DNA of 63,965 nucleotides, filler included, from Theionarchaea archaeon (GCA_018992565.1; 3 parts of 3 records of this genome joined end to end with filler, not necessarily neighbours in it); one strand, 5' to 3'; counted from the whole stretch's first letter, positions 6,450 through 63,965 are shown. The notes: a model not told the origin generated them from the sequence alone. A program made the numbers and translations.

Positions 6450-6534
6450 TTATTGGAGAGGGGCATGGAAATATATAACAGTTATTGACGTTCCAGAGTG
6501 CTGACCAGGGCACGTCGAGATGGCATTCTTGCCC

Positions 6535-7758
6535 TCATGTATCTAGTGGCTCTCGCGTGGAACATTCGCCAGCCATCCTCAGCATGAAAAGAGCAGGTAT
6601 GCCCAACAGAATCACTGCTGATGCTGCATACCATGAACTAATAATGGAAGTATATTCTGCAATCAAACCAAATATAATGAGTCCCAGAGCTGCAGCTCCT
6701 CTGCACATCATGGAATCAAATGAAAGAATTGTTGCCCTTGTTTCTGCTGGTATGTGGTCATTTATATAGGCTTTCCGGGTGGGAAGCATAACGCCTCTCC
6801 CCATGAAGTAAAAGAAGAAAACAGGTAGCGACAGTATGAAGTAGTTTGATAGTGCCAGTCCCAGAGATGTTGCAGCACAAACAAGAGTTGAAACAATCAA
6901 TATCTGGTACCGTTTGAATAATGATGTCCAGTGCACCAGAAGACTTCCGGCCATCAATCCAAGCGATAGGGCGACCCAGGCAAACCCTACCTCTTGGGTA
7001 TTGGCAATTTCCTGAAAGTATGGCTGCCAGTACTGCATCACAGCCATGTATGCAAACATTGAGATCGCACCAGGTATGATCAGAAGCAACACAACCTTGT
7101 TCTTCACGCCGTAGGTCACGCTGAATCCGATGATTTTTCTCATTCGTGATACTCCGTTTCTCAGAGACAGGGATTCTTTTTCCAAGTACACCTCATCCAT
7201 CAAGACGTATCCCATCCAGAGGGTTGCCAGAGCCAGAAAAGCTCCTCCCAGGAAGGGAAATGCCAGGTTGTATGAGCCCAAGAATGCTCCAAACAGACCA
7301 GCGGCAATTGATACACCGCTGGTGAGCGTGGCAGCTCTTCCAAAGAGCCTGTCTTTCTTCTGTGTATACCCATTCATGTCCAGAGAGTCCACAAACCATG
7401 CTTCCAGTGCACCTGAGTGGAAGGTCATCCCAATGGCAGCCACCACTTCAGCCATGGCAAACAAGAGAAAGGAGCCGGAGAAAAAGTATATGAGAAAAGA
7501 GAGAGACATGAACATGCAGGCGATCAGGAAAGAACGTTTGCGTCCAAACATATCTGATACAGCACCCGTTGGAATCTCCAGAAGGAATACGCTCCCCATG
7601 TAAAAGATGTTTACAAGGTTGACTTGTAACAGATTTAACCCTTTGGATAGCATAAAAAGTATGTTTGTAGCCTGGATGGTATTCACTGACAGCATAAAAA
7701 AGCATTCCATCAGGTAAAACGTGAGCACTGTCTTCTTTAGTCTATCTATGATGCTCAC
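6535..7758 (-). CDS. MFS transporter, putative exporter of RiPP locus 1
   Basis: LEIPTGAVSDMFGRK and FHSGALEAW motifs. The start overlaps the stop of the upstream radical SAM gene. Confidence 0.88.
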   Translation of the reverse strand: MSIIDRLKKTVLTFYLMECFFMLSVNTIQATNILFMLSKGLNLLQVNLVNIFYMGSVFLLEIPTGAVSDMFGRKRSFLIACMFMSLSFLIYFFSGSFLLFAMAEVVAAIGMTFHSGALEAWFVDSLDMNGYTQKKDRLFGRAATLTSGVSIAAGLFGAFLGSYNLAFPFLGGAFLALATLWMGYVLMDEVYLEKESLSLRNGVSRMRKIIGFSVTYGVKNKVVLLLIIPGAISMFAYMAVMQYWQPYFQEIANTQEVGFAWVALSLGLMAGSLLVHWTSLFKRYQILIVSTLVCAATSLGLALSNYFILSLPVFFFYFMGRGVMLPTRKAYINDHIPAETRATILSFDSMMCRGAAALGLIIFGLIAEYTSIISSWYAASAVILLGIPALFMLRMAGECSTREPLDT

Positions 7759-9118
7759 CCTCGGGCCTCTCCTTCAAGAAAGGATAGTAGTACCGAGCAG
7801 ACTCACTGAGAACTTCTCCCACATCAGTGCAGTAGGGCCTCCCGATGCCCTCCCCCTTTTCAGCGGCAAGCTTGGTACACCCTCCGCCGCATACAAGCGC
7901 CAGGTTGCAGGATTTGCACTCAGGAATGTGAAGGATACTCCTGTTTCTCCACTGCCCCAGTGCGCTTTCATCTATTTCGAGAGTGGGAAAGAATCGTCCG
8001 ATTTTGTACTCTTCAACGCCGGCGCAATTAACACAGGTATATACATCCCCCTTTAAGTCAAAACAAAAGCGAGTCATATTCGCTCCACAAAACTTGAACT
8101 GGGGAGATGGCAGCTGGTCAGTTTCCAGGGCCTTTCTGAAGATTTCCGCCCCAACCCATCCAATAAGGTGGATGACACGCATCTCCTGGTAATTCCGGTA
8201 CAGGTCGTAGATCTGGTGTAACGCAACATGCTCTGGCAGCCTGTGCCTGTATTCCATGCAACTGATGTCTCTCATGGGGGCCATGTAGGGTACAATCAAC
8301 TTGTTTTCTTCCCAGCCCTGTTCTATGAAAAACCGAGCCAGCTCAGGTAGAAGGGCCAAATTCTGAGCATCCACATTGATGCGGATAGCCATCTTTATGT
8401 TGTTGTCCACAGCTTTCTGGATTCCTCTAATGATGGGGGTGAAGGTTCCACTGGTCTTGGGTGATATGCGCCTCTTGTTGTGCATCGTCTCCGGCCCGTC
8501 CACTGTAACCTGAATAAACTCCAGGTCATAGGAGGACAGCATGTCAACATAGGATTCAAGTTCCACGCCGTTTGAGACTATCTTTGGCTTCCATCCACGA
8601 TTACTACTCTCATCAAGAATCTTCTTGATGACTTCGAATTGCCTCTTACTCTTCAGGAGCGGTTCTCCTCCGAATATTACAAAGTAGGGGAGTTCTTTGG
8701 ATGGTGATTTTTCTTGAAGATAGTCCATGCTCTCAAACGCAGCGTGAAGGCATTGATCATCAATAACCACATTTTTCCGAGCCGAGTGATCCTGAAAGCA
8801 GTAGCTACATCGAAGGTTGCACGCATAGGTGGGGTACAGATAAAAAACGGGAAGACTCATCTTGATTTTCTGCTCATACTCTCTGAATCGGTAGTTCAGA
8901 TATTTCTCTTCGTATTCTTCCGTTTCGAACACGTATCCCTTTCTCTTCAACGTGGTCAGTGTATCGCCATTATTGACTTTTTCACCACGTTCCACTCTCC
9001 TGAGAATGTCCACCACATCATCATCAACAATATCCATGGCGGATGACAGGTTATTCATTAAAATATACATTCCTTTTTCGTCCACTGGGAACAACAAATT
9101 ATAACGACTGAGATGCAT
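7742..9118 (-). CDS. Radical SAM/SPASM peptide maturase B, N-terminal RRE-like domain
   Basis: CNLRCSYC, FGGEPLL; SPASM CGA..GDVYTC...CKSC..VCGGGC..C; N-terminus SRYN..LMNNLSSAMDIVD. Confidence 0.92.
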   Translation of the reverse strand: MHLSRYNLLFPVDEKGMYILMNNLSSAMDIVDDDVVDILRRVERGEKVNNGDTLTTLKRKGYVFETEEYEEKYLNYRFREYEQKIKMSLPVFYLYPTYACNLRCSYCFQDHSARKNVVIDDQCLHAAFESMDYLQEKSPSKELPYFVIFGGEPLLKSKRQFEVIKKILDESSNRGWKPKIVSNGVELESYVDMLSSYDLEFIQVTVDGPETMHNKRRISPKTSGTFTPIIRGIQKAVDNNIKMAIRINVDAQNLALLPELARFFIEQGWEENKLIVPYMAPMRDISCMEYRHRLPEHVALHQIYDLYRNYQEMRVIHLIGWVGAEIFRKALETDQLPSPQFKFCGANMTRFCFDLKGDVYTCVNCAGVEEYKIGRFFPTLEIDESALGQWRNRSILHIPECKSCNLALVCGGGCTKLAAEKGEGIGRPYCTDVGEVLSESARYYYPFLKERPEGEHHR

Positions 9119-9124
9119 GTTATG

Positions 9125-10495
9125 CTAACCTCCCTCTGCTTTTTTCTTTATCAAGGGGTAGTAGTAATGAAACCCGAGATTCAATATCTGATGTATCCCC
9201 ACACAGGGACTGGCCTGCAGTGAACCATATTTGGTTACTGCAATGAATGTACAACCTCCCCCACACAGGAGGTTGTAAGAACAAGTGCTGCACTTAGGAA
9301 GTGTCAGAATATTCCTGGTTTTCCACTGGTCCAGCAATTCAGTATAGAACTCAAGGTCAGGTGAATACCTCCCAATGATCTGGCTCTTCTCCCCTGCGAA
9401 TCCAGCGCACGCATAGATGTCCCCGAATGTGTCAAAACACAAGCGTTTCATTCCAGCACCGCAGAAGTTGAAGAGTGGAGAATACAGCCATCCCTTCTTT
9501 ATGAGATTCTCTATGCTTTCCATCCACCTCCATCCCATGAGGGTGATGATTTTTGTTTCTGGGTTGTTGGTATACATTTTCAGTATTGTCTTCAGTAACT
9601 GGGGGAGTGGAATGACGTTTTCCTGTCCAATGCATCCAGAATCTCTCACAGCTGCAATATACGGAGTAATTAACCCCGTGTCTCTCCAGCCTCTTTCTAT
9701 GATAAATGAGGCCATTTCAGGTAATGAGTGGAGGTTCTCCTTGTCTACATTGATTCGCAGTGCGATATGCATTCCTACTTCTTTCAACACTTTGTCTACA
9801 TTATCTGCAATCTTGTCAAAACTTCCAGACCCGTCTGCGAATATTCTCCTCTTGTTATGAATATCTCTCGGTCCATCCAGGGTGACCTGGATATGTTTGT
9901 CTACATATTTCTGGATTGTGTCTATGTAGTGATTGAGATCAACCCCATTAGTGATAATTTTTGAGTGAAATCCACTATCTTGGCATTTCTTCAAAATATA
10001 GGTGACCGCATCTTTCTGCTCTTTGCGGTACATCAGTGGCTCTCCTCCAAACAAGGTGAGCAGGGGTTGTCCTTTGGATCCTCCCTCTGCATGGATTTTT
10101 TCCATGACTTCAAACGCCCTATCAACGAGACGTGGCTTGATGACATCTCCCTTCCTCATGTCCTCTGTCTGAAAACAGTAGGTGCAGCGCAGGTTGCATC
10201 CATATGTCGGATAGATAAAGAAGGACTCAGGCTCTAAAGCAAGGTTCTTACTCCACTGTTCAAATGCTTCTGTAATCAACCTTTCTTCATCTTCTTTTTT
10301 TCCATAGATGTACCTTCTCTTTGCCAATTCATGAAGTATTTCCGTCGTACCTGTTAGCTTCCCTTTCCGTAGGTTCTTGATGACATTGATGACCTCTGCG
10401 TCAACAATGTCGACAGCTCCTGAAAGAGGATTTACCAAGATAATGTCCTCTGTATCAGAAATAGGAAAAAAGAAAGTATAACGACTGACGTACAT
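9125..10495 (-). CDS. Radical SAM/SPASM peptide maturase A, N-terminal RRE-like domain
   Basis: CNLRCTYC, FGGEPL; SPASM CGAG..GDIYAC...CSTC..LCGGGC..C. GGTGA SD 5 nt before ATG 10495 (MYVSRY...). Paralog of 7742-9118. Confidence 0.92.
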   Translation of the reverse strand: MYVSRYTFFFPISDTEDIILVNPLSGAVDIVDAEVINVIKNLRKGKLTGTTEILHELAKRRYIYGKKEDEERLITEAFEQWSKNLALEPESFFIYPTYGCNLRCTYCFQTEDMRKGDVIKPRLVDRAFEVMEKIHAEGGSKGQPLLTLFGGEPLMYRKEQKDAVTYILKKCQDSGFHSKIITNGVDLNHYIDTIQKYVDKHIQVTLDGPRDIHNKRRIFADGSGSFDKIADNVDKVLKEVGMHIALRINVDKENLHSLPEMASFIIERGWRDTGLITPYIAAVRDSGCIGQENVIPLPQLLKTILKMYTNNPETKIITLMGWRWMESIENLIKKGWLYSPLFNFCGAGMKRLCFDTFGDIYACAGFAGEKSQIIGRYSPDLEFYTELLDQWKTRNILTLPKCSTCSYNLLCGGGCTFIAVTKYGSLQASPCVGIHQILNLGFHYYYPLIKKKAEGG

Positions 10496-10548
10496 AGTAA
10501 TCACCAAATCCGGCACTGTGTGTCTTATGGCCCAGCAACTCCATGTAT

Positions 10549-18621: not shown

Positions 18622-21222
18622 TTATATGAACTTTCCTTGGAATTCACTTCTCATCTTGACTAATTCCTCTAGTGCTTGCTCTATTATGAGCGTAGGTATG
18701 GATTTAGTTAATTCGTATGAAACTTTGCTATAGTAATACACGTTTTGCGTATTCTTGTCTATGCGAGTAGTTCGCAATCTCTTGTTGCCCAAAAGCCATT
18801 CTTCTGCAGTCTTCATATCTGAATTGAGAGCTTTGAGAGCACGAGTGGCGAAGAAAGCTTCTTTTGGCGTTAGTTCGAGGGAAAAACGAGCCATTATCCA
18901 TTGTCTACATGCATCCATGTTCTGGATTTTGAGAGTGCCGAGCAAAGAAAGCGATTCTACTGCATAACACGTCTGTAATAAAGGGGAACACGTATCATAC
19001 TCGAAACTGAAATAGCTCCCATTAAAGGAGTTTAACACCCATGTAGTGTGTCTTGACATGTTTTTCGTCTCTTCAAGAAGAGAGAGTGACTGCACTGCAT
19101 AGTACAAGGCTTCAATTTGTGCATGTCCGTCAATAATGAAAGAGAACCCTCCTTCTTCTCTTTCGGTCGCAAGAATCCAACTCAGGACTCTCTCATTCAG
19201 GCTGATTTCGAAGAATTTTGCAGTCTTGCTGTGAATAAAGGTTCCTTCTTGATTCGAAAATCCTTTAGCTTCATGATGAAATCCTCCGTCAAGAGACTGG
19301 TGTCTCCTAATGACTTTTTCGATGAATTGCGGATATGTGTCCTCGATGCCATTTCCTGACGAAGCAATCTCGAGGAGAAAGGAGAACCTGAGGAAACTGA
19401 AGGGCATCGTGATTCTGGTAAAATATAAGAGCAAGACAAAGAGTGCTGATAAGAGGAGTAGATTGCCTCCTGGCACTGCTATGAAGGCCTTAACCATGCA
19501 GAAGACAATGTAGAACATGATAGAGACAAATGTAGGTACAATGAGCAAAATAAAAAGAATCAACAAGTAAAACAGAGGGTTACTGACTGTGACAAATTCC
19601 TTCGTCTTCTTGAAAAAGAAGAGAATTCTTTTTTCTGTGTACACATCAACATTTCCACGTATTACAAGAGATAATAGGGCAAAGAAACCCAGTATGAGTA
19701 CACATAGCATCGAGGGAACGAAAGATTGTGGCTCAATTGTAGTATGGAAGAAAAATCCATGGATGATTGTCATGGGGGGCCAGACAAGAGCAACCATAAG
19801 AAATGGAGCAAACAAAAGATACCAGTCTCTAGAATCGAAATCATTGTGTCTGTTGTTAAGAAATCCTGCAAAGGACATCAAGAGGCCGCAGGCACCAAAT
19901 CCTATAGAAATTACTACGCACTCTCTGTCAAGGAAGAGGCCATAACTAGTTATGGCTGCAGCTGATAGAGTAATTGCTGCATTACTCGCAAGGGGAAAAA
20001 AGAAATCCTTACGGACTAGATCGCAAAAGTGTAGGGGCGTTCTGGTAATTGGAAATACATAAGTTATTGCCACCAGGCTGGAAGCTCCAACAAAAGGAAT
20101 GACTCCTTTAAGAAATGCCTCGAATTCTGGTGTCGATGTGATTTGAAACAACACATTTGCATTAATAAAGAAGTGATTAATGGAGTAGTAAAGAAAGACA
20201 GACATTACTCCTATGCAGAATGCAAATACGGGCGAAAAGTTCTCATTCTTCGCTTTGAGAAAAGTCTTTTCATCAATATTATTGAGTCTCTCTTGGAGAG
20301 GTGGATGAGTTGACAGTCCATGTCTTGATTTCGCACCCTGATGAAAACAAAGATTCACGATACCACCCCTTTCCAATGTTCCTATGCTAGCATACTTCAC
20401 CAGAGCTGACTTCAATGAGGTGTCACATCCATGAAAGATGGTATAGGCATCCGCTATTGACTCTCTGGTCCTGGAAAGGGAGCTTTTAAGGAATACCAGG
20501 GAAAAGTAGAGCAGCAGGACGAGAATGGGGAACAGTATGACAGCTTCAAGATCAGGGCTAAGCTCAAAAACAAAGGGATATGAAAATCCAGAATGGGCGG
20601 AGTATACGAATTCTGCATAAGCGAGAGGAAAAGGGGGAATCCAATACTTGAAGCCTTCAAGGAGAATTGTCAACCAAGTGAAGAATCCCACATCGCCTTG
20701 ATAGACATGAGAGAGCTCGTGCGTAATGACAGCATGTTGTTCTTTTTCAGTCAACAATGACATACTCTCAGGAAGTACAAGTACAGACTCTCTTCTGCCT
20801 CTTCCGTAGACGAGAGGTGAAATTCCTAGTGATGTACTTTTCACTTTTGGCGTTGCAGCCAGACTAACAAGACGACTGATTTTTCGAACATTTCCTGGCG
20901 TCTTCATATCTTTGAGATGGAGACGCCTTTCAACTAGCATGAGAAGAAACTCATACACGACTATACCTAAGAATAATGGAAGAAGGAAATAGACAGAAAG
21001 GATGAAGAATTTGAAACTACCAGTGTGGAAATACAAGGAAATGAAGACAAGTGATACGCTACAAAACAAAAAATACAGACACAATAAAACAGCAAGGATA
21101 AGCAGAATCTGAATATCGCTCTCATACTTGTCAATTATTCTCTTTCTCTTTCCTACACAGAGATAGAAAATAGGAATTGACATACCCAATAGATAACACC
21201 ATGCTATTACTGCAGAACCCAT
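18622..21222 (-). CDS. M48/HtpX-like zinc metalloprotease with multi-TM region and C-terminal prenyltransferase-like alpha/alpha repeat domain
   Basis: HELSH, RESIAD and STHPPLQERL M48 motifs; DGGF/EGGF repeats followed by YYAVQSLSLL and CYAVESLSLL. Confidence 0.75.
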   Translation of the reverse strand: MGSAVIAWCYLLGMSIPIFYLCVGKRKRIIDKYESDIQILLILAVLLCLYFLFCSVSLVFISLYFHTGSFKFFILSVYFLLPLFLGIVVYEFLLMLVERRLHLKDMKTPGNVRKISRLVSLAATPKVKSTSLGISPLVYGRGRRESVLVLPESMSLLTEKEQHAVITHELSHVYQGDVGFFTWLTILLEGFKYWIPPFPLAYAEFVYSAHSGFSYPFVFELSPDLEAVILFPILVLLLYFSLVFLKSSLSRTRESIADAYTIFHGCDTSLKSALVKYASIGTLERGGIVNLCFHQGAKSRHGLSTHPPLQERLNNIDEKTFLKAKNENFSPVFAFCIGVMSVFLYYSINHFFINANVLFQITSTPEFEAFLKGVIPFVGASSLVAITYVFPITRTPLHFCDLVRKDFFFPLASNAAITLSAAAITSYGLFLDRECVVISIGFGACGLLMSFAGFLNNRHNDFDSRDWYLLFAPFLMVALVWPPMTIIHGFFFHTTIEPQSFVPSMLCVLILGFFALLSLVIRGNVDVYTEKRILFFFKKTKEFVTVSNPLFYLLILFILLIVPTFVSIMFYIVFCMVKAFIAVPGGNLLLLSALFVLLLYFTRITMPFSFLRFSFLLEIASSGNGIEDTYPQFIEKVIRRHQSLDGGFHHEAKGFSNQEGTFIHSKTAKFFEISLNERVLSWILATEREEGGFSFIIDGHAQIEALYYAVQSLSLLEETKNMSRHTTWVLNSFNGSYFSFEYDTCSPLLQTCYAVESLSLLGTLKIQNMDACRQWIMARFSLELTPKEAFFATRALKALNSDMKTAEEWLLGNKRLRTTRIDKNTQNVYYYSKVSYELTKSIPTLIIEQALEELVKMRSEFQGKFI

Positions 21223-55198: not shown

Positions 55199-56689
55199 AT
55201 GCAAAGAAAACGAGCAATCATCCTGGTAATGCTCATGGTCATACCACCATTAGTAGCAGCTGAGGGACCCCGAGGTCCACTCTGTGATCCATTTCGTCCA
55301 GAAGTGGAAAACCACATCTGGTTCTGGTGGCCTGAGGGTATTGCAGGGTTTGAATTTGATGATGCAGGCAATTTACTCTATATTGTGGATGGGATTCCTG
55401 CTCAATCTGGAGAACTCATTTCCTCCAGTGTGCAGAGAGAATTCCGCAAGTTACCATTATCTGGAGAATTCACCTTCTGGCGCCCCATAAAAGAGGATGG
55501 ATTGGGTGGATTCTGGCTGAAACATTTTGCTGTAAAGAATCTGAACCAGCCCTGGGGGAAGGTTTCCCCGGGTGTAGATTACGCTTATCATCTTGACCTG
55601 GGAAATAGGATAACAGAAGTCAAGAGAGAGGATTTCAAATCATTCAAGGAACAGCCCTTTGCACAGGGCATGGGAGACTACATATGGAAAAAGGAAGGGT
55701 CTGAACTGCATGGCATAAAATTCGATACCAAAGGTGTTGCAATGTATCTGGTTCACGGCATCCCTGGAACCTACTCTCTGGATGATGCACCTCCCGATGG
55801 GTATATGGTGTGGCAGCCTGTGGATTCCAAGAGCAAGGAAGGGTTCTGGTTGAAACATGTCGCTGTGAGAGAACTGAAAATGCCATGGGGGAACGTCTAC
55901 CAGGGCGTGGACTACACCTACCAGTCAGAATTTACCTTGAGAGAGCTAACCCGAAGACAGGCTTCTGGATTTACCGATGACCCGTTTACCCCTGAGCTAA
56001 AAAACCATATCTGGAAAAAAGAAGGAGACACTCTGCGTGGATTCCAGTTTGATGAGAGGGGGCATCTCCTGTACATGGTGGAGGGAATTAAAGGTACCTA
56101 TACTCTGGATGATGTGCCCTTTTCAGGAGAGTATACGGTATGGATCCCCACTACTCCCAGCAGTTCCTCCGGATACTGGCTGAAGTATGCTGCAGTCACT
56201 GAGTGTGAGATGTCCTGGGGAGACGTGTATCCTGGAATTGACTATGCATATGAAGAAGGAAAATCAATCAAAGACCTGCCAAAGAGCAGCACATTCACCT
56301 TTTCACCCTTCTCTACAGGAGGTCTGGAAAATCATATATGGAAACAGGTAACAGACTCTCTCTATGGTGCGCAGGTTGACGACCAGGGGAAGCTTCTCTA
56401 TCTGATTCACGGTGTACCCGGCACGTATTCTCTGAATGATGTTCCTTTATCAGGCGAGTACGTAGTATGGTACCCTATCAAGGAAGGAGAACAGGCAGGG
56501 TTCTGGCTGAAATATGTTGCAGTGAGAGAAGTTGATATGGGATGGGGCCCTGTGACATATGGCGTTGACCTTTCCTACAACCAGCAGAAAGGCCATGGAA
56601 TATCATTTCTCACCAGAGATGACTACTATGAAAGCTGGGACCTGAGAAAGCTCTTGAAGTACTTCTGGGATGTCATGATGGATGACTGA
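55199..56689 (+). CDS. Secreted protein built of four ~108-aa aromatic-rich repeats
   Basis: Signal peptide; four copies of PF..NHIW..G..FD..G..LY.V.GI.G...GFWLK..AV.....WG.V..GVDY.Y. Confidence 0.85.
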   Translation: MQRKRAIILVMLMVIPPLVAAEGPRGPLCDPFRPEVENHIWFWWPEGIAGFEFDDAGNLLYIVDGIPAQSGELISSSVQREFRKLPLSGEFTFWRPIKEDGLGGFWLKHFAVKNLNQPWGKVSPGVDYAYHLDLGNRITEVKREDFKSFKEQPFAQGMGDYIWKKEGSELHGIKFDTKGVAMYLVHGIPGTYSLDDAPPDGYMVWQPVDSKSKEGFWLKHVAVRELKMPWGNVYQGVDYTYQSEFTLRELTRRQASGFTDDPFTPELKNHIWKKEGDTLRGFQFDERGHLLYMVEGIKGTYTLDDVPFSGEYTVWIPTTPSSSSGYWLKYAAVTECEMSWGDVYPGIDYAYEEGKSIKDLPKSSTFTFSPFSTGGLENHIWKQVTDSLYGAQVDDQGKLLYLIHGVPGTYSLNDVPLSGEYVVWYPIKEGEQAGFWLKYVAVREVDMGWGPVTYGVDLSYNQQKGHGISFLTRDDYYESWDLRKLLKYFWDVMMDD

Positions 56690-57717: not shown

Positions 57718-58470
57718 ATGGAATCTCTCAAGGGAAAAACAGCTTTAATCACAGGCAGCTCACGTGGCATTGGAAGAGGATGTGCTCTGGTCCTGGCCAG
57801 ATGTGGCTGTAACATTGTCGTAAACTATGTTGAATCTCTGGAAAAGGCGCAAACCCTGATAAAAGAGACTAGGGAGCTGGGAGTGGAGTCTCTGTCAGTA
57901 CGAGCAGATGTTTCCAGGGAACAGGATGTTAAATTGCTGATTGAGAGTACGGTCAATACCTTCGGGGGAATAGACATACTTGTCAATAACGCAGGCATCC
58001 ACCAGCATCTCAAGACATGGGAGCTCTCACTGGAAGACTGGAATAGAGTCATTGCCACCAATCTGACAGGGGTATTCCTGTGTTCACGAGAGGCTGTCAT
58101 TCACATGAAGAAGGTACGATCAGGATCGATCATTAACATTTCATCGTGCGTGGCGTTCACAGGGACAGATCACGAAATACACTATGCATCCTCCAAGGCA
58201 GGTATTGTGGGATTCACCAAGAGTCTTGCTCTAGAAGCTGCCCCCTACGGTATACGAGTGAATGCTGTGTCTCCTGGATTCTTTGCTACTGACATGGTAC
58301 TGCCCCTGATCACCGACGAGGAAAGGAAAGCCCTGGAGGCCACAGTACCACTGGGGAGACTGGGAACCCCTGAAGAGATTGGCGATGCAGTTGCCTTTCT
58401 TGCATCTGACAGGGCACGTTACATAACAGGAGAGACACTCCATGTGAACGGTGGAGTCATCATGTACTAA
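57718..58470 (+). CDS. Short-chain dehydrogenase/reductase (FabG-like)
   Basis: TGSSRGIG, NNAG, YASSK, VNAVSPG. Confidence 0.93.
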   Translation: MESLKGKTALITGSSRGIGRGCALVLARCGCNIVVNYVESLEKAQTLIKETRELGVESLSVRADVSREQDVKLLIESTVNTFGGIDILVNNAGIHQHLKTWELSLEDWNRVIATNLTGVFLCSREAVIHMKKVRSGSIINISSCVAFTGTDHEIHYASSKAGIVGFTKSLALEAAPYGIRVNAVSPGFFATDMVLPLITDEERKALEATVPLGRLGTPEEIGDAVAFLASDRARYITGETLHVNGGVIMY

Positions 58471-60238
58471 CCCGTCTTGTGGAGGATTCCAGCACCGATA
58501 CGACGTGGGTGCCATCCCAAAAAAGGAGTCCATACTCATGAAGCGTTTCCAGGATGCTAAGGAGGGGTTTTTCATCAATGCGAGTGTGTTCCTTAATCTG
58601 AGAGATTGACTTGATTGAATTACAGAATATGAGGATATCAGTCTCATCATTATCCAATTCATAGGTTAATACATCTGGTCCATTCTCTTCAATGAATGAA
58701 CCATCCCGATAGTGGGTCCAGGTGTAAGAACGGTTCTGCGTTGTAAATAATGCCAGAGCAGCATCAAAATCGTCCCACAAGAAAGAGGGTTTCTCATGGT
58801 AAAACCCAAAAAACTCCCACCTGTCTTTTTCAGAAACCAAATGAGAAGAGCTGATTTCTTCCCAGAAGCGATTGTGCCTCCACTTTTGCCTGCTCTCTTC
58901 TGGCATGTCAGTGTAAAAGGGGGATCCTTTGTACAATTCCAGCGTGGAAGGGTGAAGTGTGTATGTGTTCAGGAGAAAACGCACAAATTTCACGTTGGCT
59001 ATGCTTTCCATAATATCTTCTCTGGATTCTGTGGGGATACCTCGTATAATGTTCAATCCGTCAAGAGAAAGGTTGAACCGTTTTCCAATCTTTAAGGCCT
59101 GTATATTGTGGACAACCCTGTGCCTCTTCTCCATCTTTTTCAGCAGAGAATCAGCCATGCCTTCAAATCCCATCTGTGTGGACATGAAAGAAGCAAGCTG
59201 CATTAAATGAGCTGTCTCTTCAGTAAGAAACAGAGGAGATATCTCTGCAAAAAAATGATAAGGCTTTTTCCGCTTACGTGAAGCCTCCACCAAGAGAGTC
59301 AAGAGAGTTGTGAATCGACTTTTATTCCCGGCTACATCAGTATCCACAAAAATGAAGTCACCAGTGTCATGAGTTTCAGCTTGGTATTCAATTTCTGCAA
59401 CAATATTCTGGGGCGTGCGGGTTCGATACTGATACTGCTCATTCAGGACACAGAAGGAACATTTATTCCAGGGACAGGATCGTGAACCCCAAATAGGAAT
59501 GAGGATTCTCATACCAGCCAATCCAAGACTTTTGACTGCATCAAAGTAGTCTGTATGGTCTGCAAAAGCGAATGAATCCAGGTCCTCAGATGCAGCACAA
59601 GGTTCCGTAGACACGAGTGTATTCCCCCGGTAGACAAGACTACTGCACCTATCCTCCATAGTGCCACTCTCCAGTGTCTTGACCAGGTGTAGTAAAGGAT
59701 ACTCGCCCTCACCATATATTGCATAATCAATGTGAGGGATCAACCTCATGAAAGCTTCAGCCTGCTCTTTACAGGTTGCACCCCCCAGGATAATCGTGAT
59801 GTCTGGATTCACTTTCTTGAGGCGGGAGGTAATATACCAGTTCATGAGCCACTGATAGGTCTTCACAGTAATTCCATGAATCCCTTCTCTGTGCAGGTTA
59901 TTCTGGAGGATATACCTGTCAATTTTCTCCTTTAATGAGAAGATCACATCATCAATTTCCTCATCAGTCAAGACGGAGGAAAACAAAAGAGAGAGGGAGG
60001 TCCTGTCCTTGATCCCCATCAAGCGTTTCCACGCGTAAACAGTGAGCGCTTCCATTGAAAAAGTGTTGTCTCCTGCTGCCTTGAGTGTCTTGTTAAATCT
60101 GGAAATTTCAGAAGAAAGCTCCAGATTCCAGTACACATTTTTCACAGCAATACCATGAGACTGTAAGAACCCCTTTAAATAACCCAGTGCAGGATTGGGA
60201 ATATCCAGAGCGTATGGTAGATTACTGTGGAGTATCAT
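58460..60238 (-). CDS. B12-binding-type radical SAM enzyme resembling RiPP-maturation C-methyltransferases (TIGR03975-like)
   Basis: PNPALGYLKGFL..VYWNL, IILGGA, GEGEYP, GSRSCPWNKCSFC, QMGFE; C-terminal wHTH-like segment; divergent from precursor A1. Confidence 0.8.
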   Translation of the reverse strand: MILHSNLPYALDIPNPALGYLKGFLQSHGIAVKNVYWNLELSSEISRFNKTLKAAGDNTFSMEALTVYAWKRLMGIKDRTSLSLLFSSVLTDEEIDDVIFSLKEKIDRYILQNNLHREGIHGITVKTYQWLMNWYITSRLKKVNPDITIILGGATCKEQAEAFMRLIPHIDYAIYGEGEYPLLHLVKTLESGTMEDRCSSLVYRGNTLVSTEPCAASEDLDSFAFADHTDYFDAVKSLGLAGMRILIPIWGSRSCPWNKCSFCVLNEQYQYRTRTPQNIVAEIEYQAETHDTGDFIFVDTDVAGNKSRFTTLLTLLVEASRKRKKPYHFFAEISPLFLTEETAHLMQLASFMSTQMGFEGMADSLLKKMEKRHRVVHNIQALKIGKRFNLSLDGLNIIRGIPTESREDIMESIANVKFVRFLLNTYTLHPSTLELYKGSPFYTDMPEESRQKWRHNRFWEEISSSHLVSEKDRWEFFGFYHEKPSFLWDDFDAALALFTTQNRSYTWTHYRDGSFIEENGPDVLTYELDNDETDILIFCNSIKSISQIKEHTRIDEKPLLSILETLHEYGLLFWDGTHVVSVLESSTRRVST

Positions 60239-60494
60239 CTCTTACCGTTCTCTCGATCACTTTAAAGGTTTTGCTGAGGGTGTTTCGCATTTCATTTTGT
60301 CTTTCTACATTATGAGATCTTTGACACAGTGAGGTTAACTGGTATATAATTCATTGCCAGATCAATTATTGCTCCCATCATATTTTATAACCAAATCGAG
60401 AGGTTCCATGTTTTCTGAGTACATTTGAGAGTAAGAGAAACTTTTTCAAGAGTAATTGCGCCTAAAATCTGGTTCATACAGCACGTAATTTCAG

Positions 60495-60510
60495 CAGAAA
60501 CATTTATATA
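60495..60510 (+). promoter_or_regulatory. BRE/TATA of precursor A1
   Basis: CAGAAACATTTATATA about 43 nt upstream of ATG 60553. Confidence 0.7.
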
Positions 60511-60552
60511 GTAGCATGTCATTAAAATCGCAAATGAAAAGGAGGTGCTTCC

Positions 60553-60657
60553 ATGAAATTCAACGTCAAGAAAGTGGAGACTGTTTCCACAACTGCAATG
60601 GCCATTGTCGATGATGCAGGTGGCCCGTGGATGGAGTCCAAGAACCAGTGCCTGTAA
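60553..60657 (+). CDS. Putative RiPP precursor A1, 34 aa: MKFNVKKVETVSTTAMAIVDDAGGPWMESKNQCL
   Basis: AGGAGGTG SD, TATA, a paralog at 63664 with many synonymous differences, and a position directly upstream of RRE-radical SAM genes. Confidence 0.93.
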   Translation: MKFNVKKVETVSTTAMAIVDDAGGPWMESKNQCL

Positions 60658-60694
60658 GGCAAGTGAAGCCTTCTTCATTTTTTCATTTTTTTTT
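60656..60694 (+). terminator. Short hairpin (AAGGC/GCCTT) plus T-tract between A1 and maturase 1
   Basis: AAGGC aagtgaa GCCTT cttcattttttcatttttttttg. Confidence 0.6.
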
Positions 60695-60707
60695 GTGAGG
60701 TGATAAT

Positions 60708-62051
60708 GTGCCGTACCTGAAAATTGCCAGGACACCGCTCATAAGGAGAACACCTTTGGGAACATTTGCATGCTTCCCTCATGATTTTCGACTGGAGTCA
60801 TTTTCTCCCATAATGGAGATTGACGAGTCAGTAGAACAGCTCCTCGCCCTCTGCGATGGAACCCATACCAGAGAAGAGATACTCACCCTCCTCTCTTCTG
60901 AGACAGGAGAGCCCATCCAGGAATTTGAAGCTGATTTTGATGCATTTGTGGAGTATATGATGGGGGAGCATGTGCTGGAGTGGTCAGATACGCCAGCATA
61001 TGTAGAACCAATATACCAGAGAAAAAGGCCCTACAGCATCACCATGGAGGTGACCAGTGCATGTAATCTGTCCTGTGTCATGTGTTCCACTGATTCAGGT
61101 AGTGCTGGTCAGGATGATTTGACCCTGGATGATATTATCCCGTTTGTGGAGCAGGTGAAAAAATACAAACCCACACCCTTTGCCATCAGTGGAGGGGAAC
61201 CGCTCATCAAAAAGGAGATGGTCCTTTACATGGTGCGGGAGCTTTCTCCTGTTAGAGAGATTGCTGTCAGTATTTTTACCAATGGTACGCTCGTAACCAA
61301 AGACTATGCTCAGCAGCTTGCTGATGCAGGGCTGAAGATAGCCAGAGTCTCACTAGATGGACACACAGCTGCTGTTCATGATGCAATCAGAGGGAAGGGA
61401 GCATTTGATAAGACGGTCCAGGGAATAGAGAATTTGAAAGAAGTGGGCATTCGCGTGAACACCGTCTCTGTGATATCTTCCCTGAATCATAGGTTCCACA
61501 ATGAAATACGGGCTTTTGTGAGAGACATTGCAGATAGTAATGATTTTGTGGGAGTGTATCCCTGGGGGAGGGCAACTGAAGATTTGAATCTGACAACTGA
61601 AGAATCCCTGGAGTTCAGAGTAGGGAGCCTTGCAACAGATAGAATCGTCACCAATGTCAGCCCCCGTAATCGGTGTAATGTGGGTGAGACTATCTATGTG
61701 AAAGCCAATGGAGATATTTTCCCCTGTTTCTTGCTGCGATTTCCAGAGTTCAAAGTGGGAAACATCAAAGAAGATGATCTTTCATCAATCTATGAGACTG
61801 AAATGTTCCAGGAACTTCTGGGAATAACAGTTGAGGATATTGAGGGGTGTAAAGACTGTTACATTCGTTATTACTGTGGTGGAGGGTGCAGGGCTCATGC
61901 CTACCGCTGCAATGGCTCAGTATATACGCCTGATTCTTTTGATTGCGAGAGGACCAGGGTGACAGTTGAAAGGATTCTAGAAAATGGTGAAGAAACAACG
62001 CAGAGACTCATGAAAGAATTGATTGAAACCAGCAAGACTGCAGACCAATGA
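60708..62051 (+). CDS. PqqD/RRE-radical SAM-SPASM maturase 1
   Basis: LLALCDGTHTREEI (PqqD-like), CNLSCVMC, SGGEPL; SPASM C..GDIFPC...CKDC..YYCGGGC..C. GAGGTGA 4 nt before GTG. Confidence 0.94.
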   Translation: MPYLKIARTPLIRRTPLGTFACFPHDFRLESFSPIMEIDESVEQLLALCDGTHTREEILTLLSSETGEPIQEFEADFDAFVEYMMGEHVLEWSDTPAYVEPIYQRKRPYSITMEVTSACNLSCVMCSTDSGSAGQDDLTLDDIIPFVEQVKKYKPTPFAISGGEPLIKKEMVLYMVRELSPVREIAVSIFTNGTLVTKDYAQQLADAGLKIARVSLDGHTAAVHDAIRGKGAFDKTVQGIENLKEVGIRVNTVSVISSLNHRFHNEIRAFVRDIADSNDFVGVYPWGRATEDLNLTTEESLEFRVGSLATDRIVTNVSPRNRCNVGETIYVKANGDIFPCFLLRFPEFKVGNIKEDDLSSIYETEMFQELLGITVEDIEGCKDCYIRYYCGGGCRAHAYRCNGSVYTPDSFDCERTRVTVERILENGEETTQRLMKELIETSKTADQ

Positions 62052-63399
62052 TGGAGGTGGTACTACCACAGCATCCTACCCTCGTGTAAGGCACCAGGTT
62101 ATTATCAGGGAAACGAACCTGGGAGACTATTTGCTATCGGGGTCCAGTGTCCTGGAAATAGATGATGCCAGTAGGACTGTTGTTGCATTGTGTGATGGGT
62201 GTCACACTGTCCAGGATATTGCTGCAGTAGTTGCCTGCCAGCAATGTGAGCCTGTTGAGACGGTAGTTGATGAGCTGGTGCCATTTCTGGATATGCTGGT
62301 GGAGGAGGGAGTCATCCAGTATTATGATACACCCGAATACATTTCTCCACTCTATGCATATGATAGACCGTTATCGGTGATATGGGAAATCACCTATGCG
62401 TGTAATCAGGCATGCCAGTACTGTATTGCTCGAGCAGGAAAAGCTGCACCTGATGAACTCTCCAGGAAAGAAATGGACACCATCCTTCAGGAGCTTATCA
62501 GCCTGGATGTGGGATTGATCAATATTACAGGCGGAGAACCGTTATTAAAGAAGGAGACAGCTCTCCATATAGCAAAGAAGGCTTCTGAGAATGGAATTGA
62601 ACTGGAACTCTTAACCAATGCTATGCTGGTAACAGAGGAGGTGGCACATGAACTGCATGAAGCAGGGATCAGGTATGCCCAGGTGAGTATTGACTGTGTC
62701 CACCCTGAAGTCCACGATGCACAGCGTGGGGTTGCTGGAGCCTGGGAACGAGCTGTGAATGGTATCACCAGGTTAAGAGATGCAGGCATTGAAGTCATGG
62801 CAGCTGCTGTTATGAACAAGGAAACACTCCCATATTTTATGGAGACAGCAAAATTCCTGGAAAATTGCGCAGACAAGGTAAAAATGGGTCCTGTACAACC
62901 CATGGGGAGGGGAGAGAAGAGTGAGCTGCTTCTCACGCCTGAGATGTACTATGACTTGCAGGTTCTGAGGAGTACCACACCTGATAACCAGCTGGTGGAT
63001 TTCATCTTCTGTAAGGAAAGATGTTCTATTGGGACAACTCCTGTCATCTGTCCCAACGGAGATGTGTATCCCTGCATGTTGACCAAATATAAGGAGTTGA
63101 AATTAGGAAATCTCAAGAAAGAGTCTTTCAGGTCAATCTACAAGAACTCCGAGGTGTTGCATGAGCTGTTTCAGGTGACCGTTGACGACATTGAGAAGTG
63201 CAACTCCTGCTGGAACAGGTACTATTGCGGGGGAGGGTGCAGGGGATGTGCTTTTGCGTACCATGGGACAATCTACAAGTGGGACCCCTATCAATGTGAG
63301 GGGGAGAGAAAATTTGCTCGTGCACTCCTGAAGTGGGGACATCCAGAAACCAAGAGAGCGCTCAAAGAGTTGCTGCGACTTTCAAAGAACCTCCCATGA
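62023..63399 (+). CDS. PqqD/RRE-radical SAM-SPASM maturase 2 (start uncertain: TTG 62023 or SD-positioned ACC 62065)
   Basis: VALCDGCHTVQDI, CNQACQYC, TGGEPL; SPASM C..GDVYPC...CNSC..YYCGGGC..C. Confidence 0.94.
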   Translation: MKPARLQTNDGGGTTTASYPRVRHQVIIRETNLGDYLLSGSSVLEIDDASRTVVALCDGCHTVQDIAAVVACQQCEPVETVVDELVPFLDMLVEEGVIQYYDTPEYISPLYAYDRPLSVIWEITYACNQACQYCIARAGKAAPDELSRKEMDTILQELISLDVGLINITGGEPLLKKETALHIAKKASENGIELELLTNAMLVTEEVAHELHEAGIRYAQVSIDCVHPEVHDAQRGVAGAWERAVNGITRLRDAGIEVMAAAVMNKETLPYFMETAKFLENCADKVKMGPVQPMGRGEKSELLLTPEMYYDLQVLRSTTPDNQLVDFIFCKERCSIGTTPVICPNGDVYPCMLTKYKELKLGNLKKESFRSIYKNSEVLHELFQVTVDDIEKCNSCWNRYYCGGGCRGCAFAYHGTIYKWDPYQCEGERKFARALLKWGHPETKRALKELLRLSKNLP

Positions 63400-63605
63400 T
63401 ACCTGTGGGATAAGTACCGTACCGAGTATCGGGTGATTATCAATTTATTCAAGAATTCTGCATGATCTTAACAATTGCGGAAACAAATTTTCTGGCATTA
63501 CTTTCTTTCTTTGTATAACGTTCTTTTGAAATATTTTAATTATAGTTATTTTTTTAATAATAAATATGTATTCTTAGTGATTGATACTGAATGAAATAGA
63601 AATAC

Positions 63606-63620
63606 CCAAAAGTTTATAAA
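63606..63620 (+). promoter_or_regulatory. BRE/TATA of precursor A2
   Basis: CCAAAAGTTTATAAA about 44 nt upstream of ATG 63664. Confidence 0.7.
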
Positions 63621-63663
63621 TGGACATGGACATGGACATAAAACTACGCAAGGAGGTGAAATC

Positions 63664-63762
63664 ATGAAGTTTAATGTCAAGAAGGTTGAGTCTGTCTCCA
63701 CAACAGCTGTTGCTCCAGCAGCAAAGAATCCCTGGAAGGAAACCAAAGCACAGTGCCTGTAG
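63664..63762 (+). CDS. Putative RiPP precursor A2, 32 aa: MKFNVKKVESVSTTAVAPAAKNPWKETKAQCL
   Basis: AGGAGGTGA 4 nt before ATG; paralog of A1. Confidence 0.93.
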   Translation: MKFNVKKVESVSTTAVAPAAKNPWKETKAQCL

Positions 63763-63765
63763 GTA

Positions 63766-63792
63766 TCTTGTTTTTTTCTCATTTCATTTTTT
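63766..63792 (+). terminator. T-tract after precursor A2
   Basis: tcttgtttttttctcatttcatttttt, at the same position as the tract after A1. Confidence 0.55.
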
Positions 63793-63806
63793 CATGAGGT
63801 GATATC

Positions 63807-63965
63807 ATTTATCTGAGAGCTACCAAACCGTCAAGAGTGAAGGAGACCCCCCTGGGGAAGTACTTGTATGTTCCCCACGGGTTTCAATTGGAGTCATTTT
63901 ATCCAATACTGGAGATTGATGAGTCAGTAGAACAGCTCCTCGCCCTCTGCGATGGGACCCATACC
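63807..63965 (+). CDS. N-terminus (RRE region) of a third maturase, paralog of 60708-62051; runs off the window; probable ATT start
   Basis: IYLRATKPSRVKETPLGKYLYVPHGFQLESFYPILEIDESVEQLLALCDGTHT aligns with maturase 1; 63910-63965 matches 60814-60869 at 54/56 nt. Confidence 0.88.
   Translation, partial: MYLRATKPSRVKETPLGKYLYVPHGFQLESFYPILEIDESVEQLLALCDGTHT

Follow-up and report, generated by a model that had tools for sequence, protein, structure and literature searches.

Short peptides encoded ahead of radical SAM/SPASM enzymes are probable precursors of a RiPP family in Theionarchaea and Methanofastidiosia

We examined a 63,965-nucleotide stretch of DNA from a Theionarchaea archaeon assembly (GCA_018992565.1; three records joined end to end with filler; hereafter, the window) and identified two short peptide genes, A1 and A2, each followed by genes for radical SAM/SPASM enzymes. 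A1 and A2 are probably precursors of a RiPP family restricted to the Theionarchaea and Methanofastidiosia lineages – an explanation that takes in leader binding by the RRE, modification of the core and cleavage by a membrane protein. No product of the W-x-E-x-K-x-x-C-L peptide type has been described from archaea.

The proposed pathway has three steps. First, each maturase would hold the conserved 14-residue leader MKFxVKKVExVATT through its N-terminal RRE/PqqD domain. The radical SAM/SPASM enzymes would then modify the C-terminal core W-K-E-x-K-x-x-C-L, with M1 and M2 serving A1 and M3 serving A2. Finally, a membrane HExxH (M50/YydH-like) protein with an RRE-like N-terminus would cleave off the leader and may aid product release.

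Two probable precursor genes with their own expression signals

Both small ORFs of the preliminary description were located, with the sequences it had given (Table 1). A degenerate leader pattern has exactly two matches in the window (at 60553 and 63664) and none in 100 shuffles. A public protein (P0088) is identical to A2, and the A2 ortholog in the C19 cassette of genome G001 differs from it by two residues. Across four runs from four studies, A1 carries a single variant, a synonymous A>T change at 60591.

The agreement of the two leaders at 14 of 15 residues despite synonymous change, reported earlier, holds at the codon level: six of the 15 codons are identical, eight differ synonymously and one differs non-synonymously. 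This comparison demonstrates, at the level of sequence, purifying selection on the proteins that A1 and A2 are predicted to encode.

The peptide genes also have, as described before, a TATA box, a ribosome-binding site and a downstream T-tract each. A TTTATA(T/A)A box lies ~45 nt upstream of each ORF, and T-runs follow the A2 stop codon at 63771-63792. The T-runs after A1, between the peptide gene and M1, could possibly act as a partial terminator of archaeal type. The same arrangement recurs in the family: the TTTATA(T/A)A box and GGAGGTG precede, and T-rich tracts follow, six of six genes examined. The A2 promoter has a 6-nt deletion variant at 63620 in two of the four runs.

Table 1. Features of the A1/A2 locus, in window coordinates.
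Feature	Coordinates	Strand	Description
B12-binding radical SAM enzyme	58460..60238	-	592 aa, transcribed away from A1; candidate C-methyltransferase for tailoring
Divergent intergenic region with A1 promoter signals	60239..60552	.	TTTATATA at 60503-60510; GGAGGTG at 60541-60547; from sequence
Precursor peptide A1	60553..60657	+	34 aa; leader MKFNVKKVETVSTT, variable linker, core PWMESKNQCL
T-runs 3' of A1 (6 T + 9 T)	60678..60694	+	From sequence; putative terminator
Maturase M1	60708..62051	+	447 aa, type 1; N-terminal RRE/PqqD, radical SAM core CX3CX2C, seven-Cys SPASM
Maturase M2	62023..63399	+	~458 aa, type 2, start uncertain; domain order as M1; ~34% identity to type 1
A2 promoter region	63613..63658	+	TTTATAAA at 63613-63620; GGACAT x3 microsatellite; GGAGGTG at 63652-63658
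Precursor peptide A2	63664..63762	+	32 aa; leader MKFNVKKVESVSTT, linker, core PWKETKAQCL
Maturase M3 start, type 1	63807..63965	+	Cut by window end; first canonical start GTG 63837

The synonymous changes alone leave the strand unfixed, because an antisense frame that shares the wobble positions is likewise open across both A1 and A2. We therefore considered a highly unlikely alternative – that the small ORFs are not substrates, being either regulatory uORFs for the maturase genes or the shadow of an overlapping antisense ORF that is the real gene. Antisense ORFs of 46-116 aa do overlie A1 and A2, others of 87 and 103 aa overlie the G001 copies, and the antisense frame looks conserved too because of the common wobble positions. 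However, these antisense ORFs differ in length and have nothing in common outside the overlap, whereas in six of six family genes a GGAGGTG stands 5-7 nt ahead of the sense ATG, and in all 42 family members the stop codon comes exactly one residue past a Cys. The uORF version, moreover, leaves unexplained both the RRE on every downstream enzyme and the homogenization of RREs between enzymes that share a leader (see below).

A peptide family with an invariant C-terminal tail

A profile built from six peptides retrieved 38 library representatives at E ≤ 0.001 from 1.84 billion proteins, and 37 of these are peptides of 29-65 aa. The family comprises at least 42 distinct sequences, in which the leader is followed by a variable linker and a (P)WKExKxQC-L-stop ending. 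Leader residue E9 and tail residues W26, K30 and C33 are invariant across the 42-sequence alignment, while K27 is present in 38 members and E28 in 40. The penultimate residue is always Cys, 36 of the 42 sequences end in Leu, and seven members have extra Cys. W, E, K and C, the residues singled out in the preliminary description, are thus the conserved ones. The core motif it proposed, PWxE(S/T)KxQCL, fits both window peptides, but the wider family is better written W-[KRM]-E-x-K-x-x-C-[L].

The earlier remark that this precursor family was unrecognized also stands: the 42 members have no consistent Pfam or NCBIfam match (the most common Pfam family matches only two members, E 0.088, and the sole NCBIfam match involves one member, E 0.046), and those in public records are named only 'hypothetical protein'. 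Among 132 genomes of the class that we searched, peptide and enzyme are each confined to the same two genomes, and all named homologues of the enzymes come from Theionarchaea or Methanofastidiosia assemblies. Genomes carry two to three diverged precursor copies, each with its own maturase.

The peptide genes are paired with genes for RRE-radical SAM-SPASM enzymes

A1 is followed by two RRE/PqqD-radical SAM-SPASM genes (M1 and M2) and A2 by the start of a third paralog (M3), as the preliminary description had it. M1 and M2 score above the Pfam cut-offs for Radical_SAM (PF04055; 84.7 and 98.4 bits, cut-off 29.5) and SPASM (PF13186; 38.8 and 37.6 bits, cut-off 21.5). For PqqD (PF05402; cut-off 23.4 bits), M1 lies just above the cut-off at 23.8 bits and M2 just below it at 21.3, and homologues score 30.5 and 38.4 bits. 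Radical SAM residues C119, C123 and C126 and SPASM residues C323, C340, C381, C384, C390, C394 and C413 are invariant across 65 M1-family sequences, the latter being the seven Cys expected of a SPASM domain with two auxiliary clusters. An AlphaFold2 model of M1 (mean pLDDT 93.1) contains strands and three helices at residues 32-93, corresponding to the RRE, and its closest solved folds are CteB (the first Foldseek match), anSME, SkfB and SuiB. The full M3 product is a 439-aa protein (P0047) that starts at 63837 or earlier, with ATT 63807 at the position of GTG in M1.

A type-1 maturase lies directly downstream of all six peptides with visible context (A1 and A2 in the window; C3, C19 and C7 in G001; and one in G033), and all eight type-1 maturases in genomes with visible cassettes belong to a peptide-led operon. 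A search for homologous small ORFs beside orthologous enzymes thus succeeded. The earlier description of tandem precursor-maturase cassettes of the RRE-dependent radical SAM/SPASM RiPP type is supported. M2 has counterparts in the equivalent position in G001 C3 and G033. G001 C19 and the window's A2 unit are minimal cassettes with a single maturase, against four conserved residues, so enzymes and conserved residues do not pair off one to one.

Neither M1 nor M2 reaches the cut-off of any curated NCBIfam maturase family, so the crosslink chemistry is unreadable from homology. The top model for both is WgkB (NF050035; 134.9 bits for M1 and 145.5 for M2, cut-off 650). Scores are similarly short of the cut-offs for StsB (NF045574; 134.9 and 131.2, cut-off 625), MftC (TIGR03962; 116.3 and 138.2, cut-off 265), PapB (NF047865; 87.1 and 69.7, cut-off 340) and SCIFF (TIGR03974; 78.7 and 75.5, cut-off 425) maturases. 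M2 scores 96.3 bits against PqqE (TIGR02109; cut-off 381.35), a model absent from the best 25 listed for M1. Most likely, the radical enzymes downstream of the peptides cross-link the W-x-E-x-K-x-x-C-L tail. Our best guess at the chemistry is a Trp26-Lys30 carbon-carbon ring (of streptide, WGK or darobactin type) and/or a Cys33 thioether. Such a Trp-to-Lys ring would span i, i+4 with Trp first, unlike streptide, in which Lys comes first, unlike WGK, and unlike darobactin, which is i+2.

These data also bear on a different and improbable role for A1 and A2 – as precursors not of a secreted natural product but of a small redox cofactor made from a peptide, in the manner of PqqA (PQQ) and MftA (mycofactocin). 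Several features fit a cofactor: the precursor is very short, its W, E, K and C are invariant or nearly so at the extreme C-terminus, the enzymes are of the RRE-radical SAM-SPASM type with MftC the curated cut-off most nearly approached (by M2), and the genes inspected in the cassettes and immediately beside them include no transporter. However, a cofactor usually has one uniform precursor, whereas these peptides occur as multiple diverged copies with their own maturases, variable linkers and occasional extra Cys residues. The MftA-type GVY and PqqA-type E-x-x-x-Y motifs are absent from the 42-sequence alignment, and no gene for a cofactor-using dehydrogenase was found among the genes inspected beside the cassettes. 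An identification of M1 and M2 as MftC itself was rejected, given their scores below 265 bits and precursors that end C-L; the mycofactocin precursor ends Gly-Val-Tyr.

The RRE follows the leader

Within a locus, maturase paralogs have near-identical RREs and diverged catalytic parts: M1 and M3 are identical at 56 of 58 RRE positions (97%) and at 47% of the catalytic part, and the two maturases of G001 C3 (C3a and C3b) at 53 of 58 (91%) and 52%. For the orthologs M3 and G001 C19 the order is reversed, with 72% identity in the RRE and 81% in the catalytic part. The retention of near-identical RREs by within-locus paralogs whose catalytic domains share only 47-52% ties the RRE to the common leader.

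Co-folding of the leader with the RRE, a check proposed in the preliminary description, gave a qualified result. M1 with A1 reached an ipSAE of 0.54 (runs 0.54, 0.53 and 0.56), against 0.01 for the best of three controls; at least 36% of contacts agree between runs, and partner pLDDT is at least 45, with the peptide's own fold uncertain. Of 80 solved complexes, 58 reached our mark, as did 2 of 110 mismatched pairs, but M1-A1 falls in the range (0.60 or below) that holds seven of the 80 solved complexes and both passing mismatches. The pass may also reflect likeness, because similar complexes (SuiB-SuiA, CteB and ChlB-ChlA) have already been solved. The modelling thus lends weak support to the A1 leader being held by the M1 RRE.

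A membrane HExxH protein closes the cassettes

In each of the four related cassettes that could be followed to the end, the last gene encodes a membrane HExxH (M50/YydH-like) protein, and another such gene very probably lies just beyond the end of the window. Residues H175, E176 and H179 are invariant in 23 sequences. PF02163 matches three of the four closing proteins at 16.1, 20.2 and 16.6 bits (cut-off 27.2) and does not match the fourth; no NCBIfam family or PDB relative was found. Several carry the JGI name 'putative peptide zinc metalloprotease protein', the KEGG name of YydH. The N-terminus of the closing protein aligns with the M1 RRE (hhalign probability 72%, E 3.3e-5). Homologues form 68 clusters at 52% identity or more, followed by a gap down to 32% or less, and M50-like and M1-family clusters fall on contigs of exactly equal size nine times, versus 0.18 expected by chance.

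A divergent B12 radical SAM enzyme may act at the locus

The TIGR03975-like B12 gene described earlier as divergent from A1 is present and aligns end to end (residues 8-581 with 7-603 of the 606 model positions), but its score of 174.2 bits is below the cut-off of 281.85. The 592-aa product also matches Pfam Radical_SAM (42.3 bits) and, just under the cut-off of 32.1, B12-binding (30.0 bits). Its family comprises at least 134 clusters at E ≤ 1e-100, a lineage-specific expansion.

We see about an even chance that this enzyme adds C-methyl groups in the A1/A2 locus. Its proposed place in the pathway is not repeated at the four related cassettes (G001 C3, C19 and C7; G033), none of which has a B12 gene beside it, but coincidences of contig size hint indirectly that B12 genes and such cassettes lie together elsewhere. 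Slightly less than even is the chance that the enzyme stands outside the A1/A2 pathway, belonging to a large group of Theionarchaeal paralogs that act for other peptide cassettes, and lies beside A1 by accident. G001 encodes five B12 paralogs (39-50% identity), none of them next to any of its three W-x-E-x-K-x-x-C-L cassettes; where a contig has both, as two do, paralog and cassette are ~30 and ~40 kb apart. Other RRE or radical SAM/SPASM genes adjoin three of the four paralogs whose flanks were read. No B12 radical SAM gene is among the genes seen in the flanks of the G033 cassette, and no RRE was detected in the B12 enzyme. Against an accidental placement, the B12 gene and A1 share a 314-bp divergent promoter region. 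B12-family clusters also lie on contigs of exactly the same size as M50-like clusters five times (0.36 expected) and as M1-family clusters four times (0.38 expected). Five of the seven distinct sizes among these B12-family contigs are short (3,987 to 11,040 nt), and the closest two non-identical B12 homologues (66% and 59%) belong to such coincidences. One contig size, 48,411 nt, is common to a B12 homologue, a 78% M1 ortholog, an M50-like protein and an A1-like peptide.

Comparison with known systems

As a candidate C-methyltransferase, the 592-aa enzyme resembles TIGR03975 proteins in its alignment over the whole model, its radical SAM core and its near-threshold B12-binding match, and departs from them in its sub-cut-off score.

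The epipeptide system of Bacillus subtilis, YydF/G/H (EpeX/E/P), likewise pairs a radical SAM enzyme with a small peptide and a membrane HExxH protease. However, EpeE ranks only ~34th among the fold matches (TM 0.42, 13% identity). In contrast to that system, no ABC transporter was seen among the A1/A2-type cassette genes, and the membrane protein here has an RRE-like N-terminus.

Ranthipeptide, sactipeptide and SCIFF maturases (PapB, CteB, StsB and AlbA) have the RRE-radical SAM-SPASM architecture of M1 and M2, and the invariant Cys of A1 and A2, being near Glu, could give a Cys-Glu thioether. However, the A1/A2 core has one conserved Cys rather than a Cys-rich array, and this Cys is C-terminal to the candidate acceptors. 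Archaeal SPASM enzymes can install ranthionine links, as reported for CrpC of Methanococcus voltae (PMC13692751); CrpC acts on a Cys-rich protein, whereas A1 and A2 are peptides on the 30-aa scale.

The streptide, WGK and darobactin systems (StrB/SuiB, WgkB and DarE) resemble the A1/A2 loci in having a short precursor gene followed by one for an RRE-radical SAM-SPASM enzyme, and a short core in which Trp and Lys are invariant. Over the whole length, the best structural overlap is with SuiB (TM 0.63-0.65), at 15-17% identity. The motifs of the known Trp-Lys systems are K-G-D-G-W, W-G-K and W-N-W-S-K-S-F. The A1/A2 family differs in its W-K-E-x-K-x-x-C-L core with an invariant Cys, its archaeal origin and its use of up to three maturases per peptide.

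A1 and A2 are small genes of a shared type

Two small precursor-peptide genes, A1 and A2, are present where the preliminary description had put them, with two RRE/PqqD-radical SAM-SPASM maturase genes (M1 and M2) after A1 and the start of a third (M3) after A2, as had likewise been claimed. A degenerate pattern of the nine first codons common to A1 and A2 matches exactly twice in the window and gave no match in 100 shuffles.

Features of the peptide-maturase locus
Feature	Position	Strand	Details
B12 enzyme	58460-60238	-	592 aa; divergent from A1
A1	60553-60657	+	34 aa; ORF listing
M1	60708-62051	+	447 aa; 50 nt after A1
M2	62023-63399	+	~458 aa, start uncertain; next after M1
A2	63664-63762	+	32 aa; ORF listing
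M3 (start)	3' of A2, running past window end	+	ORF listing

The TATA box, ribosome-binding site and T-tract described earlier were found for each gene, and they recur in all six family genes compared (A1, A2, three from the related genome G001 and one from the related genome G033): GGAGGTG lies 5-7 nt 5' of the ATG, a TTTATA-like box lies ~45 nt upstream, and T-rich tracts follow the stop. Synonymous change in the leaders was also borne out – 9 of 15 leader codons differ between A1 and A2, and 8 of these 9 changes are synonymous. An antisense frame that shares its wobble positions is likewise open across A1 and A2. The ends and lengths of the antisense ORFs are unrelated (46-116 aa in the window, 87 and 103 aa in G001), while the sense ORFs begin and end at homologous positions in every member, on which ground we take the sense strand to be the coding one. 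Among contigs drawn from four runs (four studies), the A1 and A2 genes vary at one site only, a synonymous A>T at 60591 (Thr13). A GGACAT microsatellite of three units (63620-63637) sits between the TATA-like box and the ribosome-binding site of A2, and a 6-nt deletion variant of it occurs in two of the four runs compared.

The peptides belong to an unnamed family with an invariant core

Following the earlier suggestion to look for A1 and A2 homologues with a profile, we built one from six peptides and searched it against 1.84 billion representative proteins (E<=0.001). This returned 38 matches, 37 of them peptides of 29-65 aa and one (P0088) identical to A2, and gave an aligned family of 42 distinct sequences. 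We excluded P0125, a 226-aa match with a repeated 'DENSWKESK', as a repeat translation.

The family consensus is MKFxVKKVExVATT, followed by ~5-14 variable linker residues and (P)WKExKxQCL, within precursors of 29-36 residues (except for a few records with longer called N-termini). E9, W26, K30 and C33 (A1 numbering) are invariant; K27 is found in 38 of 42 members and E28 in 40 of 42. The penultimate residue is cysteine in every peptide and the final residue leucine in 36, and seven members have extra cysteine.

The precursor family had not been recognised from the sequence, and database searches agree. Source annotations read 'hypothetical protein' or are blank, Pfam and NCBIfam searches of the members gave no consistent match, and the nearest ESM Atlas neighbors of A1 are only unnamed clusters of 30-33 aa peptides (scores 0.89-0.90). 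The named clusters, clostridial bacteriocin families, scored 0.75-0.77 in the same atlas, below the level of a lead.

Peptide-led cassettes recur within one archaeal lineage

Comparison with G001 and G033 revealed a common layout in which a peptide gene lies directly 5' of a type-1 maturase (the type of M1 and M3; M2 is type-2) in six of six cases, and all eight type-1 maturases are part of a peptide-led operon. On G001 contig C19, an A2 ortholog is followed by one type-1 maturase and a 445-aa membrane protein. On C3, a peptide precedes two type-1 maturases, one type-2 maturase and a 413-aa membrane protein. On C7, the divergent peptide MSIAVRKLEKKKTTAFTDNVWKESKMVCL precedes a 436-aa maturase and a 389-aa membrane protein, and this cassette (L117, 1786-8450) goes on with a radical SAM/SPASM enzyme that lacks an RRE and with a pair of TldD/PmbA proteases. 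The C7 peptide is a divergent family member, MSIAVRKLEKKKTT...VWKESKMVCL. In G033, contig C28 ends with a peptide and the first 150 maturase residues; C45 resumes ~three residues later in the same gene, behind which lie another type-1 maturase, one of type-2 and a membrane protein of 424 aa.

A scan of the class (132 genomes) for the C-terminal peptide pattern gave nine matches (three real in G001, one real in G033 and five by chance), and maturase homologues at E<=1e-60 were confined to the same two genomes. Leader-pattern scans of genome contigs found G001 only, plus a chance match (L003), with the second pattern demanding serine at a position (12) that is alanine in most of the family. A core-pattern scan of genome contigs gave 32 matches, of which two G001 loci are real, with a pattern that left out the G033 variant (glycine). 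Scanning metagenomes with a maturase alignment retrieved generic radical SAM/SPASM genes at 23-35% identity, with the peptide motif at none of 80 loci.

In a large collection of proteins, homologues of the type-1 maturase form 68 clusters at >=49% identity (next 35%) and those of the membrane protein likewise 68, at >=52% (next <=32%), and the longest contigs of the two sets are exactly equal in size nine times, against 0.18 expected. Homologue sources are named Theionarchaea, 'Candidatus Methanofastidiosia' and 'uncultured Thermococci', and the system is restricted to this little-studied archaeal lineage. The stretch 58400-63965 occurs near word-for-word in 20 runs from 7 studies, or in 9 runs from 6 studies once possible source runs are excluded (labeled marine sediment, mangrove, sediment, soil or plain metagenome); none of the carriers listed is an RNA dataset. 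Sediment metagenomes (marine, estuarine and mangrove) from several studies contain it nearly unchanged, which implies that the producers are not rare.

The window holds other genes of note. A second radical SAM block (5214-10516, minus strand, with 3905-5128 and 6535-7758) contains a MiaB/UPF0004-type enzyme at 5214-6449, radical SAM genes at 7742-9118 and 9125-10516, and two MFS transporters; it is presumably the first of the loci numbered in the preliminary description. An 866-aa ORF at 18622-21222 (minus strand) combines Peptidase_M48 and prenyltransferase alpha-alpha toroid domains, and a 496-aa protein at 55199-56689 (plus strand) carries four internal repeats, marked by HIWKKEG...GVDY units that recur, and matches no Pfam family.

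Maturase RREs track their leader peptides

M1 and M2 had been described as RRE/PqqD-radical SAM-SPASM enzymes. Both exceed the Pfam cut-offs for Radical_SAM and SPASM, and the M1 family keeps the cysteines of CX3CX2C as well as seven in the SPASM domain; PqqD scores fall right around the cut-off of 23.4, with M1 passing at 23.8 bits and M2 falling short at 21.3 bits.

M1 and M3 are 54% identical overall, yet 56 of 58 residues are identical across the RRE helices (residues 36-93), compared with 47% identity in the catalytic part. The tandem maturases of G001 C3 show the same mosaic (53 of 58 residues in the RRE, 52% in the catalytic part), whereas the pattern is reversed between M3 and its ortholog on G001 C19 (72% in the RRE, 81% in the catalytic part). 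Together these contrasts indicate that enzymes with the same or a near-identical leader keep the same RRE. Such coupling is the best in silico evidence here that the peptides are maturase substrates. The RRE-coding DNA is near-identical too (M1 60814-60983 and the matching part of M3 past 63965), which points to gene conversion; in four of four metagenome runs 60814-60983 acts as an assembly repeat, with ~2x depth and broken contigs. Homogenization of the RRE within the locus offers a clean natural case of a leader and its RRE evolving together.

The probable start codon of M3 is an ATT (63807), which is non-canonical. Its 5' end (63796-63840) carries GAGGTGAT plus 3 nt and ATT, mirroring the GAGGTGAT plus 3 nt and GTG of M1 (60697-60710), and the in-frame IYLRATKPSR of M3 matches PYLKIARTPL of M1; the first canonical start is the GTG at 63837.

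A co-fold of M1 with A1, in line with the leader-RRE co-fold proposed earlier, gave weak support. The ipSAE was 0.54 (0.01 for the best of three controls), with >=36% of contacts agreeing between runs and a partner pLDDT >=45. Of 80 solved complexes, 58 reach the mark, as do 2 of 110 mismatches; passes at <=0.60 comprise only 7 of the 80 solved complexes and both of the passing mismatches. Like complexes have been solved, and the pass may reflect likeness to them.

A membrane protein with an HExxH motif closes the cassettes

The membrane protein that closes every cassette seen to its end has invariant H175, E176 and H179, which form an HExxH motif. Pfam Peptidase_M50 scores 16-20 bits on it (cut-off 27.2), and searches found no NCBIfam family and no PDB relative by sequence. 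Its N-terminal residues 27-93 align with the M1-family RRE region (hhalign probability 72%, E 3.3e-5). Several members carry the JGI name 'putative peptide zinc metalloprotease protein', a name also used for YydH, which is encoded in the epipeptide operon of Bacillus. Judging by the gene order on G001 C19, a membrane-protein gene probably lies 3' of M3, just past the window end.

A B12-type radical SAM enzyme is a candidate accessory

The divergent gene beside A1 had been called TIGR03975-like. Its product aligns to that model over the whole length, at 174.2 bits, below the cut-off of 281.85. At its 3' end the gene overlaps a convergent one for a short-chain dehydrogenase. No RRE was found in the B12 enzyme: an hhalign comparison with the M1 family aligned the radical SAM core only (10.9% probability), and the last 110 residues have no Pfam match at E<=10.

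The enzyme belongs to a large lineage-specific family (134 clusters at E<=1e-100). G001 has five paralogs, beside none of its three cassettes, and no B12-type gene was seen in the flanks of the G033 cassette. The flanks of four paralogs in G001 were read, and three of these paralogs (L108, L112 and L114) adjoin other RRE-like or radical SAM/SPASM genes. Such neighbors suggest that the family is a recurrent accessory of differing peptide cassettes. Although equal contig size is no proof of gene adjacency, the longest contigs of B12 clusters equal those of M50-like membrane-protein clusters five times (~0.36 expected) and those of M1-family clusters four times (~0.38 expected). These coincidences represent seven distinct contig sizes, five of them short (3,987 to 11,040 nt), and include the two nearest non-identical B12 homologues (66% and 59%); one size, 48,411 nt, is common to a B12 homologue, a 78% M1 ortholog, an M50-like protein and an A1-like peptide. 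We judge the B12 enzyme about equally likely to belong to the pathway and to stand outside it.

Relation to known radical SAM RiPPs

The proposal that this locus encodes a RiPP is well supported so far as gene content, conservation and the coupling of RRE to leader go. From the invariant residues we infer a role in the reaction for Trp26, Lys30 and Cys33 and, probably, for Glu28. The top-ranked options would be a carbon-carbon ring between Trp and Lys and a thioether that joins Cys to Glu or to some other residue. More tentatively – and we lean against it – the W-K-E-x-K-x-x-C-L peptides could constitute a new archaeal RiPP class whose maturases would install an undescribed crosslink topology, such as a Trp-Lys carbon-carbon ring together with a link from Cys to Glu or Trp at the very C-terminus, and, in some loci, B12-dependent C-methylation.

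To our knowledge, no structurally defined radical-SAM RiPP is known from Archaea, and the new class, if real, would provide one. The family is a compact and testable entry point: the ten-residue core is fixed at four positions, each peptide is served by one to three dedicated enzymes, and natural variants already cover positions that are not essential. A literature search found no paper on this peptide family. According to a 2025 survey of archaeal RiPPs, genome mining shows radical-SAM RiPP clusters to be widespread in archaea but uncharacterised, and its accessible portion names no product from them (PMC12144867). CrpC, the sole characterised archaeal SPASM enzyme that we found in the literature, is described in the available part of its 2026 report as acting on a Cys-rich protein, in which it forms ranthionine links (PMC13692751). 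Neither source, as far as its accessible text extends, names a structurally defined archaeal product (PMC12144867, PMC13692751).

The top NCBIfam models for the maturases are WgkB, StsB, AhbD and MftC, all far under their cut-offs, so that homology does not give the reaction. SkfB is the top match in a PDB sequence search with M1 (E 4e-15), a match that sheds no light on the chemistry. The AlphaFold2 model of M1 (mean pLDDT 93.1) resembles the folds of CteB, anSME, SkfB, SuiB, ChlB and PqqE at 15-21% identity, with a TM-score of 0.63-0.65 to SuiB.
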